IMG/VR virus record: IMGVR_UViG_2711768006_000011
Length of the DNA stretch: 6,502 nucleotides
Direction: 5' to 3' (one strand)
From: a virus
Taxonomy: Duplodnaviria; Heunggongvirae; Uroviricota; Caudoviricetes
The translations under genes were made by a program, and so were the position numbers. Shown here in pieces: positions 1 to 6,502 of the stretch. Positions within the stretch are counted from its first letter, which is position 1; every line of letters begins with the position of its first letter. The notes under the pieces were generated by a model. It had not been told where the DNA came from. It searched no databases and worked only from the letters and a program-made list of their open reading frames with translations.

Positions 1-84
1 TACAATCGTCAGCGTCGTCACTCTCGTCTGGGGAATATCTCCCCGGCAGCCTTCAGGGAAAAATATCATCAGATGGCTGCTTAA
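1..84 (+). CDS. IS3-family transposase (OrfB-like), C-terminal fragment; 5' part lies outside the window
   Basis: Open frame from the window edge to TAA at 82-84; conserved integrase-core C-terminal motif as above. Confidence 0.6.
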   Translation, partial: YNRQRRHSRLGNISPAAFREKYHQMAA

Positions 85-127
85 AAAAAGAACAAATGGT
101 AGTGTCCGCTATTGCCAGTACACCTCA
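1..127 (+). mobile_element. IS3-family insertion sequence, right end (partial; element continues beyond the window)
   Basis: Positions 1-127 are the exact reverse complement of 6376-6502. Frame 1 encodes a transposase C-terminus ending YNRQRRHSRLGNISPAAFREKYHQMAA with stop at 82-84, matching the YN..R.HS.LG..SP..F tail typical of rve/DDE integrase-core transposases. The terminus ends in CA at 126-127, and read inward the terminal sequence TGAGGTGTACTGGCAATAGCGGACAC resembles IS3-group inverted repeats. Exact IS identity not assigned. Confidence 0.65.
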
Positions 128-525
128 GGATAGCGGTCATGTGATGCCGGTTTCCCGGTAACTCAGCACCGGTATCTGAGTCAACGTTTTCTCTACTGGG
201 TCATTTCCGATACGCCCTGCCTGCTGACAGGCTTTCATCACATCTGAAAATATAGCACCCTGACTGATACTGTAGTACCTAAGGTTCCAGAAACTGTGAT
301 GTATCCGGCACAGAAAAGCCCCTCCGGAGAGGGCTGGAGAGTGGCGCTATGTGCCATTGCATGATGCCGGGTGCCTCCCGGTGAATTCAGTACCAGCACC
401 TGAATCCGCGATTATCCCATATACCTACTCGCTGATTGCCCCTCCGCACAGGGGGATTCACCATGCCAGTTTCTTTTAACAAACTCCCCGCAAAACAGAC
501 AACTGTCAACCGTCTGAATTGTGAG

Positions 526-744: not shown

Positions 745-1803
745 TCATCCGTTCTGGCTGACTAAATCCTGTACTTCCCGAACCGTCTGCTCAAAACGTT
801 CAGTCTCCAGCTCAACGCCAATTGCACGACGCCCGAGCGCCAGTGCCGCTTTCACTGTCGAACCCAACCCCATGAAAAAATCTGCAATCAGGTCACCCGG
901 ACGACTGCTAGCGCTGATTATCTGCTGCAGCATTTCTGCCGGTTTTTCGCACGGATGTTTCCCGGGATAGAACTGCACCGGTTTATGCGTCCACACATCG
1001 GTATACGGCACCTGCACCGTCACGCCAAAATACCGCCGCAGATGTTTATATTCACTCAGCAGCTCCGCATACTGCCGGTTCAGTGAGGTATACGTATCCA
1101 CCAGCTGGTGGTGGAGCTTTTCCAGTTCACCACGCCGATGCTTCTCTTCTGCCACCCGGGCAAACAGCGCCTGTAATTTCAGATAATCGCTTTCATTCGG
1201 CAACTGCCACTGACCGGCACTGAACCAGTGCGACACCATGTTTTTCTTTCCTGTGGCATCTGCAATCTGTTTTGCCGTTATCCCCAGGGCAGCTCGCGCA
1301 TCACGAAAGTAAGAAATCAGCGGGGCCATCACATGCTGTTTCAGTGCACTGCCCTTCGCCGCATACCCGGCATCTTTCGGACGATACGGCCCCTGATAAT
1401 GTTCCGCGAACAGAATGCGCTCTGTGGCGGGGAAATACGCCCGCAGGCTTTCCTTGTTGCATCCGTTCCAGCGTCCGGACGGCTTCGCCCAGATAATATG
1501 GTTCAGCACACTGAAGCGTTCACGCATCATGATTTCGATATCAGATGCCAGGCGATGACCACAGAACAGGTAAAGACTTCCGGCAGGTTTCAGCACCCGC
1601 CAGAACTGCGCCAGACACTGGTCCAGCCACTTCAGGTAATCATCGTCGCCCTTCCACTGGTTATCCCAGCCCTCAGGCTTCACTTTAAAGTACGGCGGGT
1701 CCGTGACTATCAGGTCAACAGAATTTTCGGGTAACGACCGGATAAATTCCAGGCAGTCGGCGTTGATTAACTCACAACTGGATATTTTTACAGTATTAAG
1801 CAT
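745..1803 (-). CDS. Orphan DNA N6-adenine methyltransferase, beta-class (motif IV DPPY near the N-terminus, motif I FxGxG-like FFMGLGST near the C-terminus)
   Basis: 352-aa ORF. LIVTDPPY at residues 31-38, a central insert with a helix-turn-helix-like stretch (ITAKQIADATGKKNMVSHWF), and PGDLIADFFMGLGST near the C-terminus. No restriction endonuclease gene is adjacent. Weak Shine-Dalgarno, so the start is probable rather than certain. N4-cytosine specificity cannot be excluded from sequence alone. Confidence 0.85.
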   Translation of the reverse strand: MLNTVKISSCELINADCLEFIRSLPENSVDLIVTDPPYFKVKPEGWDNQWKGDDDYLKWLDQCLAQFWRVLKPAGSLYLFCGHRLASDIEIMMRERFSVLNHIIWAKPSGRWNGCNKESLRAYFPATERILFAEHYQGPYRPKDAGYAAKGSALKQHVMAPLISYFRDARAALGITAKQIADATGKKNMVSHWFSAGQWQLPNESDYLKLQALFARVAEEKHRRGELEKLHHQLVDTYTSLNRQYAELLSEYKHLRRYFGVTVQVPYTDVWTHKPVQFYPGKHPCEKPAEMLQQIISASSRPGDLIADFFMGLGSTVKAALALGRRAIGVELETERFEQTVREVQDLVSQNG

Positions 1804-1835
1804 GGATCATTAAGCCTGTCTCTGATAGGCTCATT

Positions 1836-1854
1836 CTGCTTTTGCGCAAAGCAG
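1836..1854. promoter_or_regulatory. 19-bp near-perfect palindrome CTGCTTT-TGCGC-AAAGCAG in the methyltransferase leader; candidate operator or RNA hairpin
   Basis: 7-bp arms at 1836-1842 and 1848-1854 are exact reverse complements; about 30 bp upstream of the methyltransferase start. Confidence 0.35.
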
Positions 1855-1895
1855 TGGGCCTGAGGTTTGCTTGTGAACCCAACGCATGAGCAGAT

Positions 1896-1926
1896 GGCTG
1901 GTGGGTGCCCCTAACACCCACCAGCC
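1896..1926. repeat. Perfect 12-bp inverted repeat with 7-nt loop (GGCTGGTGGGTG / CACCCACCAGCC); each arm contains a Chi octamer, giving a convergent Chi pair
   Basis: Arms at 1896-1907 and 1915-1926 are exact reverse complements. GCTGGTGG at 1897-1904 on the plus strand and at 1918-1925 on the minus strand. Confidence 0.8.
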
Positions 1927-1940
1927 GCCCATTTACCACA

Positions 1941-1967
1941 AATAAAAAAGCCTTCACTGCGGAAGGC
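1941..1967 (-). terminator. Rho-independent terminator overlapping the stop codon of the 65-aa ORF
   Basis: Minus-strand RNA GCCUUC-CGCAGU-GAAGGC followed by UUUUUUAUU; 6-bp GC-rich stem plus U tract. Confidence 0.75.
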
Positions 1968-2151
1968 GTCTGTAACAACCGAACTGATAGTCTGCCAGAC
2001 CCGCCATAACCAGCTGGGTCAGTATTAACTGGCAGCGTTCGCGTGAAAGGTAAGTATTCTGCGCTATCTCCCCGACTGTCGCCGGTTCGGTAACGCTTAA
2101 TTCATTAAACACCACTCTGGCGGTTTCTGTCATATCCTGCTGTTTTAGCAT
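1954..2151 (-). CDS. Small putative winged-helix DNA-binding protein (PapI/FaeA-like pattern), 65 aa
   Basis: ATG at 2151 preceded by AAGGA. The segment TVGEIAQNTYLSRERCQLILTQLVMAGLAD resembles the recognition helix and wing region of PapI/FaeA-type regulators. Lies between two terminators downstream of the pR'-like promoter. The family call is a by-eye inference. Confidence 0.55.
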   Translation of the reverse strand: MLKQQDMTETARVVFNELSVTEPATVGEIAQNTYLSRERCQLILTQLVMAGLADYQFGCYRRLPQ

Positions 2152-2270
2152 GTCTTTTCCTTTTCCGGTTAACGTGACACACCAATAACTCTTGTCGAAA
2201 AAGCCAGCAAGCTGAAAGACAGGTATTCACCGCCACCAGCGCGTTTACTGTACTGACGCGATTTCAGTCA

Positions 2271-2295
2271 TAAAAAACCCGCTCGGCGGCGGGTT
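2271..2295 (-). terminator. tR'-like rho-independent terminator downstream of the late promoter
   Basis: Minus-strand RNA CCCGC-CGCCGA-GCGGG followed by UUUUUUAU, about 40-60 nt downstream of the predicted start site. Confidence 0.7.
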
Positions 2296-2342
2296 GTAGA
2301 AACTCTTCTAACGTCAGGCATAAAACGCCCATCGTTATAACG

Positions 2343-2370
2343 AATTTACCACAGATTCCGGAAAAATCAA
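2343..2370 (-). promoter_or_regulatory. pR'-like late promoter immediately after the Q-like gene (-35 TTGATT, 16-bp spacer, -10 TAAATT), followed by a second -10-like element TATAAC
   Basis: Minus strand TTGATT (2365-2370), 16 bp, TAAATT (2343-2348), starting 5 nt after the stop codon of the Q-like gene. The downstream TATAAC could be a sigma70 pause-inducing element of the kind Q proteins engage. Confidence 0.5.
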
Positions 2371-2375
2371 CCTTG

Positions 2376-3197
2376 TTACCTAGTTACCTTTTTTAACTGC
2401 CGCTCAGCCCATGCTTCTTCAATATCAAACCGGGTCACCAGCGCATCATAAAATTTCTTAACTGTTTTTTCCCATGACGCGCGTGTTATCTGGTTTGTCA
2501 CCTCGCATATAGCATTAAATGCCTCCGTTGATGGTAGTCTTTCATAGCCACGACCACCACAACGCTGGCAGTCTCTGATAACAGGCATACCACGTTTTAC
2601 CGACTCTTCACGATGAATGGCGACACCACGCCCACGGCAATCCTTACAGGCGGTGGAAACCTCACCCTTTCCGCCACACTCCGGACAGGCAACTTTTACC
2701 ACCTCCCTGACTTTTTTCCATTCTTCCCAGTAAGACGGATACACACCTTTCGTACACTTTGCCCATACCGGCGGCTTACCATCCGGATACTGGATCTTGT
2801 TTGTAAAAACCTCGCTTTCAATAAATTTTTTTCCGTGACAGCAGGGGCACTGTTTTTTGCTCGCCGCGCTACGGGCATAATCTTCAAACGCATACGAAGC
2901 CATAATACGCATCACTGCCGGTTTTATTTCTGCCGGGAGTTTTCTTAACGCCGCCACGCGATCACACCGACTGAGTGCATATTCTGTCAGCAATTCTGTT
3001 GCCCGCTCTCTGTCATTCATACTAATGCCCATTTTCCCAAGGAACGCAGAAACCCCCATCTCAGCCCGATTCTGTGTCATGCCCTGCGCGGCCATCACAT
3101 CAGTGATACTCAGCGCATCTTTCGACGTTGAGGCCGATGCATCAGTCAGGCCGGGGGATTTTGGGGAGTAGTATTTCGGTAAATCTTCCAGTTTCAT
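2376..3197 (-). CDS. Q-like late-gene antitermination protein with four CxxC zinc-knuckle motifs
   Basis: 273-aa ORF. Motifs CPCCHGKK, CPECGGKG, CKDCRGRG and CQRCGGRG. Start ATG overlaps the rusA stop (ATGA). Sits immediately upstream of the promoter and terminator cassette and downstream of rusA, the canonical lambdoid position for Q. Family assignment from memory of quuQ-type proteins. Confidence 0.7.
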   Translation of the reverse strand: MKLEDLPKYYSPKSPGLTDASASTSKDALSITDVMAAQGMTQNRAEMGVSAFLGKMGISMNDRERATELLTEYALSRCDRVAALRKLPAEIKPAVMRIMASYAFEDYARSAASKKQCPCCHGKKFIESEVFTNKIQYPDGKPPVWAKCTKGVYPSYWEEWKKVREVVKVACPECGGKGEVSTACKDCRGRGVAIHREESVKRGMPVIRDCQRCGGRGYERLPSTEAFNAICEVTNQITRASWEKTVKKFYDALVTRFDIEEAWAERQLKKVTR

Positions 3198-3574
3198 TTT
3201 TTGACCTGCCCTTCAAGCATTATGGGATAAATCTTCACCCCCAGACGTCCACCAGATACTGGCTGAGCACGAACGATATTGATTTCATCAAACTGCTCAT
3301 CGTCCATTAGCAACCCCGCATGCGTCAGCGCATCCAGCGGCGCTTTCAGAATATTGTCCAGGTCACGGCGGCGCTTATCCGGTGGTTCTGCAATAATTTT
3401 TATTGCCAACCTTCCGGACAGGCTTAATTTCAGCCGCTGCTGGCGAACAATAAGCGCCACTGCCCGGCGATAACGCTCCCCGGCTTTTGATACAAAATAT
3501 GTGCTGCCACGACGACGCCAGTAAGTGTTCACCGTCGGCGGGTAAGGTAAAACAAATTCTATGCGCTCGGTCAT
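3194..3574 (-). CDS. rusA: RusA-family Holliday junction resolvase (crossover junction endodeoxyribonuclease)
   Basis: 126 aa with the conserved RRRDLDN motif (KRRRDLDNILKAPLDAL) and RusA-like N-terminus (LPYPPTVNTYW). ATG directly follows the upstream stop (TAAATG). Confidence 0.9.
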   Translation of the reverse strand: MTERIEFVLPYPPTVNTYWRRRGSTYFVSKAGERYRRAVALIVRQQRLKLSLSGRLAIKIIAEPPDKRRRDLDNILKAPLDALTHAGLLMDDEQFDEINIVRAQPVSGGRLGVKIYPIMLEGQVKK

Positions 3575-4633
3575 TTATGCTTTCCACTTCAGAACACCCG
3601 AATTTCTCGCGTGCATTAAAAAACGAATCAGCAACAACAGCTGACTGCCGTGTTTCTCTTCAAAATCTTTTACTCCGGCATGTAGTTCGTTACGGCATTT
3701 ACGGCATAACGGAATAACAAACAAATCATCAGCCTTTGTTCCCATCCCTCCCAGTCCATGACCAATGATGTGATGCGGATCATCTGCCTGATTGCCACAC
3801 GTCATGCATTTCTGCGTTTTTACCCAGCGCGTGTATACAGGCATCTCTTCCCGTTGTGATTTCTGGCGCTGGAGATACTGAGCCGGTGACTCCGGATCAA
3901 CGGCAATGCTGACCACCGTCTTTTCCTGTGGTGGGTTCTGTTGCTGGTGGACGTGAGGCAGTAACGCAATATTTTTTGTGCGCTGCTTCAGTATGCTGGT
4001 GGCTGTCTGCTCTCCCGGTATGATGTCGCTTTCACTGTACACAGAGCGAATTTTTTCCGCACGCAACCCCAGCGAACGACGTAATACCGCTTCCGGTAGC
4101 GCGTCCGCCACCTGATTGCGGACCGCCCACCAGGATAATTCAGCCAGAGATAATTCACGCTCCTGCGTACCGCTTATTGCGTGACCGATGACGTCAATCA
4201 TCCATGCTGACAGGTTTTGATGAGCAAGTTGCTCGAGTGATTCGGATGTCTGGTCACGCAGCTGGTTGTCGCAGTGCCAGCACAACACCATTGCGCCGGT
4301 ACCATAACGGTGAATGACGGTTTCGCTGTGATGATAATCGCCGTGTGGCCACTGGCAGGATTTAATATGGCGCAACAGCCAGTCAGACAATGCACCAGCA
4401 CCACCAGCAGCACGAATCACCCGTGCGTTACTGAAAAACGGCAGCAATGTTTTGTCTTCCACCAGCGGCTGGCGAGCGGCAGGAACGACCCCGGACGGCA
4501 GATTACGCATGCTTTTTGGTTCCGGCTCCACCAGTATTCTGCCGTTATGGAATGCTGACATTGATTCACGGCCTGGCTTAACGATAACCAGACCGAGTTC
4601 CGGTACCAGAACAGGTCGAAGTAATACCCGCAC
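3575..4633 (-). CDS. DUF968 / YdfU-like prophage protein with C-terminal HNH-type nuclease motif
   Basis: 352-aa frame. C-terminal CMTCG...DPHHIIGHG...PLCRKCRNELH resembles an HNH zinc-finger nuclease signature. Start is probably GTG at 4633 (GGAGG 4 nt upstream); an alternative ATG at 4561 would give 328 aa. Confidence 0.65.
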   Translation of the reverse strand: MRVLLRPVLVPELGLVIVKPGRESMSAFHNGRILVEPEPKSMRNLPSGVVPAARQPLVEDKTLLPFFSNARVIRAAGGAGALSDWLLRHIKSCQWPHGDYHHSETVIHRYGTGAMVLCWHCDNQLRDQTSESLEQLAHQNLSAWMIDVIGHAISGTQERELSLAELSWWAVRNQVADALPEAVLRRSLGLRAEKIRSVYSESDIIPGEQTATSILKQRTKNIALLPHVHQQQNPPQEKTVVSIAVDPESPAQYLQRQKSQREEMPVYTRWVKTQKCMTCGNQADDPHHIIGHGLGGMGTKADDLFVIPLCRKCRNELHAGVKDFEEKHGSQLLLLIRFLMHARNSGVLKWKA

Positions 4634-4708
4634 ATTACCTCCAGATCCGTTGCTGGAATGTGCGGGACGGACGCGTTGGCCGTTCGGAGTAAGGGAGCCT
4701 GACGGAGA

Positions 4709-4990
4709 TTATCCAGTGACGGTAGTCGAGGCTAAGGGCTTTTTTAACCTCGCATCCGCGCCTGCGGTAACACTGAATGAGCCATTCGGCCTGTTCTTCA
4801 GTGCATGGGGGATGCTGGTACCAATCAGATTTAAATGCGTGAGAGCGCCGCCCGTGCCTGCTGGCAAAGACGGCTGAATTATCAGAATTGTGTAGTCTGG
4901 AAGGCAGTGGCTGACAATAGCGCCATTCTCAACGCGCACAGTATAGAGGCCATCTTCACTAAAAATTTCACGTAATTCTTCGATTTTCAT
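4709..4990 (-). CDS. Hypothetical small prophage protein (93 aa from the ATG)
   Basis: ATG at 4990 preceded by GGAAGGA; the ORF tool starts one codon earlier at TTG 4993. N-terminal half (MKIEELREIFSEDGLYTVRVENGAIVSHC) looks protein-like; the C-terminal half is low complexity, so the 3' boundary is uncertain. Confidence 0.5.
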   Translation of the reverse strand: MKIEELREIFSEDGLYTVRVENGAIVSHCLPDYTILIIQPSLPAGTGGALTHLNLIGTSIPHALKNRPNGSFSVTAGADARLKKPLASTTVTG

Positions 4991-5072
4991 CAACAGAATC
5001 CTTCCAGATAAATAGCACTCCCCTGTTCGGGGTCCATCCCTCTTCTCCCTGCGCGCTACTTAAGTATTTTTG

Positions 5073-5102
5073 ATTCTATTCCGGCACCATCTAAAACTTC
5101 AA
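5073..5102 (-). promoter_or_regulatory. Candidate sigma70 promoter for the 93-aa / DUF968 / rusA / Q gene string
   Basis: Minus strand TTGAAG (5097-5102), 18-bp spacer, TAGAAT (5073-5078), located between the hok terminator and the 93-aa ORF. By-eye match only. Confidence 0.3.
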
Positions 5103-5110
5103 ACGCGTTG

Positions 5111-5142
5111 AAAATAAAAACAAAAACCCGCCGAAGCGGGTT
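5111..5142 (-). terminator. Rho-independent terminator with UUCG tetraloop, 3' of hok
   Basis: Minus-strand RNA AACCCGC-UUCG-GCGGGUU followed by UUUGUUUUUAUUUUC. Confidence 0.85.
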
Positions 5143-5210
5143 AAGTGTGGGTGCATTGAGGATGCCTGCCCCATCAGAGGTGGCGAGGGATTTCTCCCCC
5201 GCCTGGTCTC

Positions 5211-5366
5211 TTACTCCTCAGGTTCGTAAGCTGTGAAGACAGCGACCTCCGTCTGGCCGGTTCGAATTCGTACCTCGCAGAGGTCTTTCCTCGTTACCAG
5301 TGCCGTCACTATGACGGTTAAACAGATGACGATCAGGGCGATTAACATCGCCTTTTGCTGCTTCAT
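5211..5366 (-). CDS. hokD: Hok/Gef-family type I toxin (HokD/RelF-like), 51 aa
   Basis: MKQQKAMLIALIVICLTVIVTALVTRKDLCEVRIRTGQTEVAVFTAYEPEE has the hydrophobic helix plus conserved RKDLCEV..R.G..EVA.F.AYE core. ATG at 5366 is preceded by AAGGAG at 9 nt. The tool frame extends in frame to ATG 5423 (70 aa), which I treat as an upstream in-frame extension, not the toxin start. Confidence 0.9.
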   Translation of the reverse strand: MKQQKAMLIALIVICLTVIVTALVTRKDLCEVRIRTGQTEVAVFTAYEPEE

Positions 5367-5542
5367 AGCCTGCTTCTCCTTGCCTTTCGGCACGTAAGAG
5401 GCTAACCTAGATTTGCCGTTCATAGATTGAGCCTCAGATTAATGTTAAGCGTCTTGCCGGACGCGTAATGTTAACTGGGGCTTTTCTCTATCTGCCTTTT
5501 GGTGTTCATGCCTGAGACAGATAGCCTCAAGCACCCGCTGCA

Positions 5543-5570
5543 ATTCTACTTAACTCTCCTTTTCCCGCAA
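5543..5570 (-). promoter_or_regulatory. Candidate promoter for the hok mRNA (-35 TTGCGG, 16-bp spacer, -10 TAGAAT)
   Basis: Minus strand TTGCGG (5565-5570), 16 bp, TAGAAT (5543-5548); would give a leader of about 170 nt before the hok start. By-eye match only. Confidence 0.3.
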
Positions 5571-5657
5571 ACCGTTTTTATCCCCAGCGGCAAATCGAAT
5601 ACACCACCAGCGCCACCGCCATCGCAATTCCTACCGTTGTTAATGCTTCAGGCCAGG

Positions 5658-6002
5658 TCATCGTAAAATATCCTCCACGCTTATCAGTCCGTTCCGCTCC
5701 AGATAACTCATCGCCTTATCCGGTAATTTGCAGTCTGGCTTCGCTTTCCTCAGTTGCCAGGTTAACTGCTTTACCAGCATGGTTAACTCATCGACCAGAC
5801 GCTGATATCCCACTGGTTTGTATTCATGCAATTTACCGGCTGGCTCTGCTGCCAGCGATACCAGTGCGATTTCCAGAACAGCAATATCCATCTTATATGT
5901 GCGGATGATGTCATGGTCGATTGTGCCCGGTATGCACAGTCTCTGTGCTTCAATAGTCTCCTCTGCGTGAGCTATTAACTGCTCTCTGGTAAAAGTCGTC
6001 AT
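5658..6002 (-). CDS. Hypothetical prophage protein, 114 aa; paralogous in its N-terminal half to the upstream 55-aa gene
   Basis: ATG at 6002 overlaps the upstream stop (ATGA). Begins MTTFTRE and contains [16 protein letters not shown], paralleling MTTITKE and [16 protein letters not shown] in the neighbour. Confidence 0.6.
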
Positions 6003-6375: not shown

Positions 6376-6502
6376 TGAGGTGTACTGGCAATAGCGGACA
6401 CTACCATTTGTTCTTTTTTTAAGCAGCCATCTGATGATATTTTTCCCTGAAGGCTGCCGGGGAGATATTCCCCAGACGAGAGTGACGACGCTGACGATTG
6501 TA
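6376..6502 (-). mobile_element. IS3-family insertion sequence, right end (partial), inverted relative to the copy at 1-127
   Basis: Exact reverse complement of 1-127; transposase C-terminal fragment at 6419-6502 on the minus strand. Confidence 0.65.

Follow-up and report, generated by a model that had tools for sequence, protein, structure and literature searches.

Why a short piece of phage DNA should be crowded with copies of Chi (GCTGGTGG) is the question raised by this locus. The window (the whole stretch of DNA analysed, 6,502 nucleotides) is the nin-Q segment of a lambdoid prophage containing DUF968/ydfU, rusA, Q, a DNA methylase gene, tRNAs and hok/sok. The gene order is lambdoid (hok/sok, DUF968, rusA, Q, methylase and tRNAs, followed by lysis genes and terminase in relatives). 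The preliminary description had taken the DNA for a phage region encoding its own RusA, and both points were borne out, the Holliday-junction resolvase gene (3194..3574, minus strand) being recognized by Pfam as PF05866. On the same strand lie a Q-type late antiterminator gene (2376..3197, PF03589), an N6/N4 DNA methyltransferase gene (745..1803, PF01555) and the DUF968/YdfU gene (3575..4633), in which Pfam identifies a His-Me/HNH finger and whose N-terminal part is described as Orf-like in the literature (PMC4118853, PMC5714182). The Chi-rich segment is bounded by the end of an IS3-family insertion sequence (1..128) and the end of a second, inverted copy (6378..6502).

By exact matching of the octamer on both strands, ten Chi sites were found in the window, four on the plus and six on the minus strand. 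Eight had been listed previously, and all eight coordinates are exact, but the total was too low, with two minus-strand sites missed (1098-1105 and 4459-4466). The first of these, in the methylase codons His-Gln-Leu-Val, is on the late-gene strand, which is the orientation active when entry is from cos-right, and is variable among methylase homologues; it overlaps by 2 bp an oppositely oriented site (1104..1111, plus), and together they make a 14-bp palindrome, CCACCAGCTGGTGG (1098-1111, both strands). A second pair occupies the arms (1897-1904, plus; 1918-1925, minus) of a hairpin with a perfect 12-bp stem, GGCTGGTGGGTG-N7-CACCCACCAGCC (1896..1926), located between the orf65 terminator and the methylase start. 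Another site in the active orientation (2233..2240, minus) is intergenic, just downstream of a terminator-like hairpin (2276-2295, minus strand) that follows the Q gene. Four sites fall within the 1.06 kb of DUF968: two on the plus strand, antisense to the gene, at codons Val-His-Gln-Gln (3943..3950, CDS position 684) and Ala-Thr-Ser (GCC ACC AGC; 3995..4002, CDS position 632), and two on the minus strand, in the sense orientation, at codons Ala-Gly-Gly (4401..4408, CDS position 226) and Pro-Leu-Val-Glu (4459..4466, CDS position 168). The last site (5604..5611, minus), also in the active orientation, lies at codons Ala-Leu-Val-Val of an unannotated hydrophobic ORF of 27 codons (5578-5661, minus). 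Since the sites at 1098 and 1104 overlap in one palindrome and those at 1897 and 1918 are arms of one hairpin, not all ten are independent, and a conservative tally gives eight Chi events.

The number of Chi sites exceeds the expectation of every control. Dinucleotide-preserving shuffles of the window gave 0.23 Chi by chance (sd 0.45, largest 2), none of the 200 shuffles reaching ten, and Chi is the top octamer of the window, the runner-up having five copies. The density is about one Chi per 0.63 kb, versus one per 3.7-4.6 kb in host DNA, the baseline for which is 89 kb of sampled DNA and a published figure. The sample contained 24 Chi, with a maximum of five per 6.25-kb window, and PMC12315714 quotes a published count of 1008 per 4.6 Mb for the E. 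coli chromosome. A several-fold enrichment over the host, as proposed earlier, is thus confirmed at 6-7 times. Under a Poisson model at host density, the probability of at least ten sites is 2e-6 to 1e-5, and that of at least eight is 9e-5 to 4e-4. A maximal-order Markov expectation calculated from the 7-mers of the window itself (12 x 13 / 15 = 10.4) was discarded as circular at such a sample size.

The controls most relevant to the coding sites are those that preserve the encoded proteins. The 11 ORFs contain seven Chi, versus 1.40 expected from synonymous codon shuffles (1.23 sense and 0.17 antisense); seven was reached in 0 of 10,000 shuffles, which had a maximum of six. Across runs the expectation for the genes was 1.2-1.4, and codons drawn from pooled usage gave 0.87 (maximum 5). 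A similar count in shuffled-codon controls had been named beforehand as a possible refutation of the enrichment, and these controls gave no such count. They also bear on the explanation that the sites arose where the codons preferred by E. coli spell out Chi-prone peptides (Leu-Val, Ala-Gly-Gly, Trp-Trp, His-Gln, Thr-Ser), the DNA motif itself being unselected. Each coding Chi does fall on such a peptide in common codons, and the amino-acid sequence alone lifts the expectation to approximately 1.3, six times the random value, which is still far from the seven observed. Antisense Chi number three versus 0.17 expected (P ~1e-4), and non-coding DNA, only 1.3 kb in length, holds three further sites. 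Moreover, one-mismatch neighbours of Chi are not enriched (10 copies summed over all 24), and lambda and LLS share codon usage yet have 0 and 23 Chi, respectively (Zheng et al., PMC12315714). On the other hand, close homologues differ in which sense Chi they have, the conservation of Chi octamers does not significantly exceed that of other 8-mers, and the methylase palindrome changes along with the peptide, all of which would be expected if codon bias were responsible. Considering both sides, an origin of the cluster in codon bias appears unlikely.

A different explanation applies to the two palindromic pairs only. The Chi octamers in them might be incidental, the hairpin having a structural role, as RNA or DNA, in the leader of the methylase gene and the CAGCTG-containing palindrome being a protein-binding or modification site. 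The hairpin does have a perfect 12-bp stem (DNA fold of -18.3 kcal/mol, z -5.8) and lies in an intergenic stretch with other hairpins, and any motif in one arm is automatically mirrored in the other. In an alignment of relatives, 88% of the cells are paired and in five pairs just one side changes (G.U), the variable arm showing mostly transitions that preserve G.U pairing in the sense transcript. However, no compensatory changes were found in this alignment, covariation being nowhere above shuffles, and the hairpin matches no Rfam family. The arm that is nearly invariant, on the sense strand, is exactly the one with the active-orientation Chi, and the chance of a Chi within a 12-bp stem is small. 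Incidental Chi in these pairs are therefore regarded as quite improbable. The possibility of an intrinsic terminator was rejected because there is no T-run on either strand, and the terminator scan passed over the hairpin while picking up its neighbours at 1950-1967 and 2276-2295. Among the matches listed, other Chi-rich viral contigs also have hairpins with Chi in the arms, including some that resemble terminators.

Chi richness is conserved as a regional trait in relatives of the element. The equivalent 6.25-kb segment in 43 distinct relatives, which share ancestry and hence do not provide independent replicates, contains 3-12 Chi (mean 6.6, 1.05 per kb), versus 0.25 per kb in the rest of the same contigs, where 115 sites are sense and 16 antisense. 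In these relatives Chi gather in the DUF968-Q-methylase segment, on the side of the right end and within the ori-cos interval. The closest fuller relative (L001), a prophage at ompW in E. coli TUM10008, is 96.7% identical and retains all ten sites; ten of its 14 Chi lie within this 7 kb and only four in the remaining ~20 kb. Whole-genome numbers are modest in the other relatives, with 12 Chi in 33 kb of vB_EcoS-813R8 and nine in 46 kb of mEp460_ev081, and EHEC PPompW has only four in 44 kb despite a ydfU that is ~90% identical.

The genes of the TUM10008 prophage also provide information about its recombination functions. A Pfam scan of the annotated genes in its early-left operon revealed neither a strand-annealing protein nor any of Gam, Abc2 and MuGam; the operon encodes DUF1482, DicB, DUF1391 and an 823-aa protein whose C-terminal domain is a DnaQ-like 3'-5' exonuclease. 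The induced or isolated phages vB_EcoS-813R8 and mEp460_ev081 are annotated with the same order of genes. Thus, the lack of a Gam-like inhibitor, previously suggested as a possibility, holds for the annotated early-left genes of the relative, whereas the early region of the window element itself is gone.

These features resemble what has been reported for lambdoid phages. Inhibitor-less lambdoids are enriched in Chi, mostly between ori and cos (Bobay, Touchon, Rocha 2013, PMC3784561), and the LLS class has Chi as its top octamer, clustered at the right end and with the top strand as the active one (Zheng, Casjens, Davidson, Amundsen, Smith 2025, PMC12315714). Lambdoids without a Rec module and inhibitor accumulate Chi in this interval and use the host RecBCD-RecA pathway (PMC3784561, PMC12315714). 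The match to both studies indicates that the Chi cluster is real and represents an already known phenomenon. The ten Chi are probably the local trace of this strategy in an ancestral lambdoid phage that lacked a Rec module or RecBCD inhibitor, with selection presumably acting through RecBCD. The similarities include the lambdoid organisation, Chi as the top octamer, its position near the right end in the ori-cos interval, the lack of a canonical Rec module or anti-RecBCD gene among the annotated early-left genes of the TUM10008 relative, and a strong top-strand bias outside DUF968 in the relatives. Several points weigh against it or set the material apart from that class. The orientation in the window, a dead IS-bounded fragment, is only 6:4 versus roughly 7:1 in LLS-class phages, fuller relatives have 9-15 Chi per genome versus about 20-25 and a modest whole-genome density, and individual DUF968 Chi are not specially conserved. 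In addition, the relatives have a DnaQ-like exonuclease next to int that Zheng et al. (PMC12315714) do not count as a Rec module. The LLS-class orientation criterion is at least eight active (top-strand) Chi per genome and at most six in the other orientation, and the active/other counts are 10/4 in the TUM10008 prophage, 8/4 in vB_EcoS-813R8, 7/2 in mEp460_ev081 and 3/1 in EHEC PPompW, compared with 6/4 in the window fragment alone.

Other systems that use Chi show both parallels and differences. In lambda, whose Chi orientation is defined relative to cos, the chi+ mutants (chiA-D) of red gam phage, also cited in PMC12315714, demonstrate that a single Chi in the correct orientation is enough to bring back RecBCD-dependent growth and recombination. 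Those sites are laboratory point mutations in a naturally Chi-free phage, whereas the window has many natural sites in both orientations. Chi sites of the E. coli chromosome are the same octamer acting on the same enzyme, with coding sites mostly on Leu-Val and similar codons, but they show a leading-strand bias and, at about 1 per 4-4.6 kb, are 6-7 times less dense. Phage P1, with Chi clusters near pac, is also temperate, has no RecBCD inhibitor and has Chi as its top octamer, and the sites are placed where RecBCD entering a packaging-generated end meets them (Subramaniam and Smith, 10.1101/2021.07.08.451572). P1 differs in being non-lambdoid, in using Chi to circularise terminally redundant DNA, and in having approximately one Chi per 1.9 kb genome-wide, in contrast to the local spike in the window.

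How such sites would benefit a phage had been described as protection of linear ends from RecBCD, which is too simple. The literature credits Chi-stimulated, RecA-dependent recombination that yields end-less or concatemeric DNA rather than a switch-off of the nuclease (preprint 10.1101/2021.07.08.451572; PMC12315714). In the proposed mechanism, RecBCD would encounter, within a few kb, a Chi in the correct orientation, nick the DNA there and load RecA, and the following recombination would generate concatemers or end-less molecules, as packaging requires. RusA and the Orf-like/HNH protein encoded by DUF968, both from the nin-region of the phage itself, could help to process joint molecules. The minus strand of the window is the phage top (late-gene) strand, and by analogy with lambda the four plus-strand Chi would face RecBCD arriving from the ori side. 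Coding sites lie at peptides able to spell Chi in common codons (Leu-Val, Ala-Gly-Gly, His-Gln, Thr-Ser), and their gain and loss occur through mostly synonymous changes.

The element itself is no longer a phage. In genomes encoding an identical DUF968 protein, the segment is a 6.2-kb piece between inverted IS3-family copies (with transposase genes in L024-L029), the rest of the prophage is mostly gone and the early region is missing. No integrase, replication or terminase genes were found in the DNA examined around this piece, so that there is no live phage for Chi to serve and the sites are a legacy. The Chi cluster thus survives as a relic of a dead prophage, on a fragment with IS copies at both ends. 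Host-driven amelioration, by which a long-resident cryptic prophage gains Chi like the rest of the chromosome, would suit such a decayed, IS-riddled remnant, corresponds to a caveat raised by Zheng et al. for prophage data sets (PMC12315714) and agrees with the main Chi orientation in the ompW-integrated relative, which is that of the host leading strand as judged from flanking host Chi, but it is highly implausible because its ceiling is host density and the segment sits 6-7 times above it, induced or isolated phage genomes and viral contigs carry the same sites, and ~5 kb of adjacent lysis genes in the same remnant have 0 Chi. On this reading, the window offers a clear local case of phages that have neither a recombination system nor a RecBCD inhibitor writing the Chi signals of the host into their own DNA, and of a Chi signature that outlives the phage in a decayed prophage. 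Such a spike could also be used in annotation to mark the ori-to-cos segment of lambdoid elements that lack Rec functions and inhibitors.

Within the region, the spike of Chi is the DUF968 gene. A profile of 78 loci showed both orientations in this gene (~1.7 sense and 1.9 antisense per kb) and almost no antisense Chi upstream of it. DUF968 homologues down to 42% identity have 3-5 Chi versus 0.4-1.2 expected, partly at non-homologous positions, and positions have turned over with the number maintained. Among 74 distinct close homologues, the antisense site at 3943 is kept in nearly all, the sense sites are polymorphic, and individual Chi octamers at synonymous sites are indistinguishable in conservation from many other 8-mers; site-specific purifying selection is therefore not claimed. 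At the antisense site at 3995, the same codons are retained in homologues with 47-49% identity. The two-strand profile, the antisense excess of 3 versus 0.17, the homologues with 3-5 sites and the Chi-arm hairpins elsewhere have led us to consider, as a doubtful possibility, that DUF968/ydfU, together with the pair of palindromic double-Chi elements next to Q, is a two-way island under selection, converting RecBCD from either side. No description of this island or of the two-orientation spike in DUF968 was found in the cited literature on Chi, and DUF968 as a spike together with palindromic double sites adds detail to the published phenomenon. If true, such an island could rescue rolling-circle tails from ori as well as cos ends, or alternatively direct RecA-mediated exchange to the border of the Q/late-regulation module. 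In the chromosome, relic clusters would be strong two-way RecBCD hotspots in a repeated prophage module beside IS copies, which could favour rearrangements between prophages.

The Chi cluster of the window is a genuine feature that withstands statistical testing and carries biological meaning, and it is an instance of an already published phenomenon. A direct search of both strands located ten copies of GCTGGTGG, at 1104, 1897, 3943 and 3995 on the plus strand and at 1098, 1918, 2233, 4401, 4459 and 5604 on the minus strand. The preliminary description had listed eight, all at exact coordinates, and overlooked 1098(-) and 4459(-); its random expectation of about 0.2 agrees with the 0.23 obtained from dinucleotide-preserving shuffles, in which the largest count was two and none of 200 reached ten. 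Chi ranks first among the octamers of the window (10 copies, runner-up 5), where its 24 one-mismatch neighbours have a summed count of 10. The sites at 1098 and 1104 overlap as a 14-bp palindrome, CCACCAGCTGGTGG, and those at 1897 and 1918 lie one in each arm of a hairpin with a perfect 12-bp stem, GGCTGGTGGGTG-N7-CACCCACCAGCC (1896-1926). Because the members of these pairs are not independent, the conservative count is eight events.

All genes of the window lie on the minus strand, including those for a DNA methyltransferase (745-1803), a 65-codon ORF (orf65, 1954-2151), a Q-type antiterminator (2376-3197), RusA (rusA, 3194-3574, as originally proposed) and DUF968/YdfU (3575-4633), a 94-codon ORF, hok with sok RNA (5211-5536), an unannotated hydrophobic 27-codon ORF (5578-5661) and three further small ORFs. 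The first 128 and last 125 bases (1-128 and 6378-6502) are inverted copies of an IS3-family end. IS-rich chromosomes about 4.8 Mb long encode the identical DUF968 protein, in a segment that adjoins ompW between two inverted IS3-family copies; this segment has all ten Chi, and the adjacent 5 kb of lysis genes hold none. No integrase, replication or terminase genes occur in the DNA examined around the segment on these chromosomes. The window is therefore the nin-Q piece of a decayed lambdoid prophage.

Several additional features of this segment were observed. In one such chromosomal locus (L024), the bounding IS3-family copies occupy 7060-8215 and 14667-15822 (orfA about 100 aa, orfB about 272 aa). 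In another (L027), one side has other neighbours (trpA/B and tail-fibre genes) than the ompW side of L024-L026, which suggests IS-mediated inversion or rearrangement between genomes. ARAGORN reported no tRNA in the window, since the N-run at 526-651 masks part of a cluster that is unmasked in L024 (13930-14179: tRNA-Met(CAT), tRNA-Arg(TCG) and tRNA-Arg(TCT)). This cluster resembles ileZ-argN-argO, located downstream of Q in Stx-type lambdoid phages. Directly downstream of it lies a full-length Rfam match to the sRNA STnc100 (306-495, minus strand; 123.6 bits, E 1e-27). The hok-family toxin gene (5211-5423, minus strand) and the sok antisense RNA (5361-5536; Rfam, 112 bits) form a type I toxin-antitoxin system in the nin region. 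The ATG of the 27-codon ORF, which contains one Chi, overlaps the stop of an upstream 114-codon ORF (ATGA), and its product is possibly a small membrane protein.

The cluster was also found in relatives. The best E. coli match, the TUM10008 prophage at ompW (L001, 96.7% identity), keeps all ten Chi and has only four more in its remaining 20 kb or so. Among 78 viral contigs whose DUF968 protein is 90-100% identical, the flanks have about 0.1-0.4 Chi per kb, almost all upstream sites being on the gene-sense strand; the density spikes in DUF968 itself (1.7 sense and 1.9 antisense per kb) and is still raised downstream (0.6-1.5 per kb over 2-6 kb). The equivalent 6.25 kb of 43 distinct relatives holds 3-12 Chi (mean 6.6), compared with 0.25 per kb outside the segment in the same contigs (115 sense vs 16 antisense). 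Thus, the cluster is a regional lineage trait, and the window sits at the upper end of its range. It is not universal: in the 44 kb of the EHEC prophage PPompW_132418 there are only 4 Chi, one of them in ydfU. This prophage shares rusA, a ydfU about 90% identical and the ompW site, and its gene for a large exonuclease is a pseudogene. Close lineages therefore carry very different numbers of Chi.

Lambda convention names as top the strand that codes for Q and the lysis proteins, and top-strand Chi are active towards RecBCD that has entered through the right cos end (PMC12315714). This strand corresponds to the minus strand of the window, and L001 has its lysis genes, an HNH gene and the gene for the small terminase subunit on the low-coordinate side. 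On this basis, the six minus-strand Chi would be in active orientation, beginning some 7 kb from cos in L001, and the four plus-strand Chi (two mirror halves of palindromic elements and the DUF968 antisense pair) would face RecBCD arriving from the ori side.

The element's own early region is gone, and recombination and inhibitor status was read from the annotated early-left genes of L001. These encode an 823-aa protein with a C-terminal DnaQ-like 3'-5' exonuclease domain, DUF1482, DicB and DUF1391, and include no Gam, Abc2, MuGam, Bet, RecT or Erf, so that the suspected absence of a Gam-like inhibitor agrees with the annotated genes of this relative. The same early-left gene order is annotated in the phages vB_EcoS-813R8 and mEp460_ev081. 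Isolated DnaQ-type nucleases near int do not count as a Rec module for Zheng et al. 2025 (PMC12315714). The nin region of the window encodes both RusA and DUF968, a His-Me/HNH superfamily protein with an Orf-like N-terminal part (PMC4118853, PMC5714182).

Bobay et al. 2013 reported that Chi is over-represented, and concentrated from ori to cos, in lambdoids without recombinases and RecBCD inhibitors (PMC3784561). Zheng et al. 2025 isolated one such phage, LLS, which grows better when RecBCD is present; Chi is its top octamer, with 23 copies, 20 of them active-oriented, clustered at the right end, and 62 of 68 Enterobacteriales lambdoids lacking a Rec module have at least 8 active Chi (PMC12315714). 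The window resembles this class in organisation, location, octamer rank and its relative's inhibitor status; it differs in its local orientation of 6:4 and in being a dead fragment, and its fuller relatives differ in their moderate genome-wide Chi counts. The cluster is probably a legacy of past selection for Chi in a lambdoid ancestor that would have had neither Rec module nor inhibitor. A benefit from Chi had been suggested as protection of DNA ends; in the literature it is attributed instead to RecA-dependent, Chi-stimulated recombination yielding concatemers or end-less molecules (PMC12315714; 10.1101/2021.07.08.451572).

Distant DUF968 prophages (Enterobacter-type, Phytobacter and similar; L010-L013, L017) have 12-20 Chi over 15-21 kb, with very few of them off the late-gene strand, and give the appearance of typical LLS-class elements in other Enterobacterales. 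L010 and another contig, L008, are assigned to Geobacteraceae and Veillonella MAGs, apparently through mis-binning of contigs from enterobacterial prophages.

Within DUF968, Chi is confined to the few peptides able to spell it: Gly-Leu-Val (CDS 42), Leu-Val-Glu (99 and 168), Ala-Gly-Gly (226), Cys-Trp-Trp (500) and, antisense, Ala-Thr-Ser (632) and His-Gln (684). Nearly all of 74 distinct close homologues have the antisense pair, and the sense sites are a varying subset. Homologues at 42-52% identity (Kosakonia, Phytobacter, Symbiopectobacterium and others) have 3-4 Chi vs 0.4-1.2 expected, partly at other positions; in one Enterobacter-type clade the excess is not significant (2 vs 0.85). Single Chi octamers are conserved no better than many other 8-mers of the gene. 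This pattern is one of turnover with number maintained rather than of fixed sites. The methylase palindrome behaves likewise, HHQLVD codons giving both Chi orientations and HHQLVS or HYQLVS homologues one or none. A selected two-way Chi island made up of DUF968 and the palindromic double sites is unlikely, and no description of such an island was found in the literature on Chi in phages examined for comparison.

The dependence on particular peptides could also make the cluster a pure by-product of coding, a distinctly unlikely explanation. When synonymous codons were shuffled within each of 11 ORFs (10,000 shuffles), 1.23 sense and 0.17 antisense Chi were expected, compared with 4 and 3 observed; the maximum was 6, and no shuffle reached the observed 7. 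Codons drawn from pooled usage gave 0.87, DUF968 alone has 4 vs 0.54-0.56 expected, and the non-coding DNA of the window holds 3 Chi in 1.3 kb. Codon usage was likewise argued not to explain Chi load by Zheng et al. 2025 (PMC12315714).

Host amelioration is highly improbable: a host sample of 89 kb from the closest E. coli genome contains 24 Chi and at most 5 per 6.25-kb window, in agreement with the published 1008 per 4.6 Mb (quoted in PMC12315714), and the window is 6-7 times denser (Poisson P(>=10) 2e-6 to 1e-5; P(>=8) 9e-5 to 4e-4). The enrichment first noted over the E. coli chromosome is thus upheld, since both codon shuffles (7 vs 1.40) and host sample stay below the observed count.

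A different main role for the sites, considered for the two palindromic pairs alone, is improbable. In relatives, the sense-strand Chi arm of the hairpin at 1896-1926 is nearly invariant, and the opposite arm varies, chiefly through transitions after which a transcript would still form G.U pairs. Their alignment revealed no compensatory changes and nothing above shuffle controls, and the hairpin has no Rfam family match and no T-run. The 150-bp leader between orf65 and the methylase gene (1810-1970) is dense with hairpins, including a terminator (1950-1967, minus strand), a 7-bp-stem hairpin, CTGCTTT-TGCGC-AAAGCAG (1836-1854), and AGCCTGTCTCTGATAGGCT beside the methylase start (1813-1831), and may be regulatory. 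Short hairpins with Chi and its complement as arms were also observed in other Chi-rich viral contigs among the matches listed (L130 at 2834; L131 at 5839 and 11833; L132 at 8080 and 14076; also L137 and L141), where there are two per contig, with a spacing of about 6 kb. Some are flanked by A- and T-runs, like two-way intrinsic terminators (e.g., AATGCTGGTGGAGTGCGCCCACCAGCATTTTTTT), and such hairpins may be a recurrent way of putting both Chi orientations into non-coding DNA.
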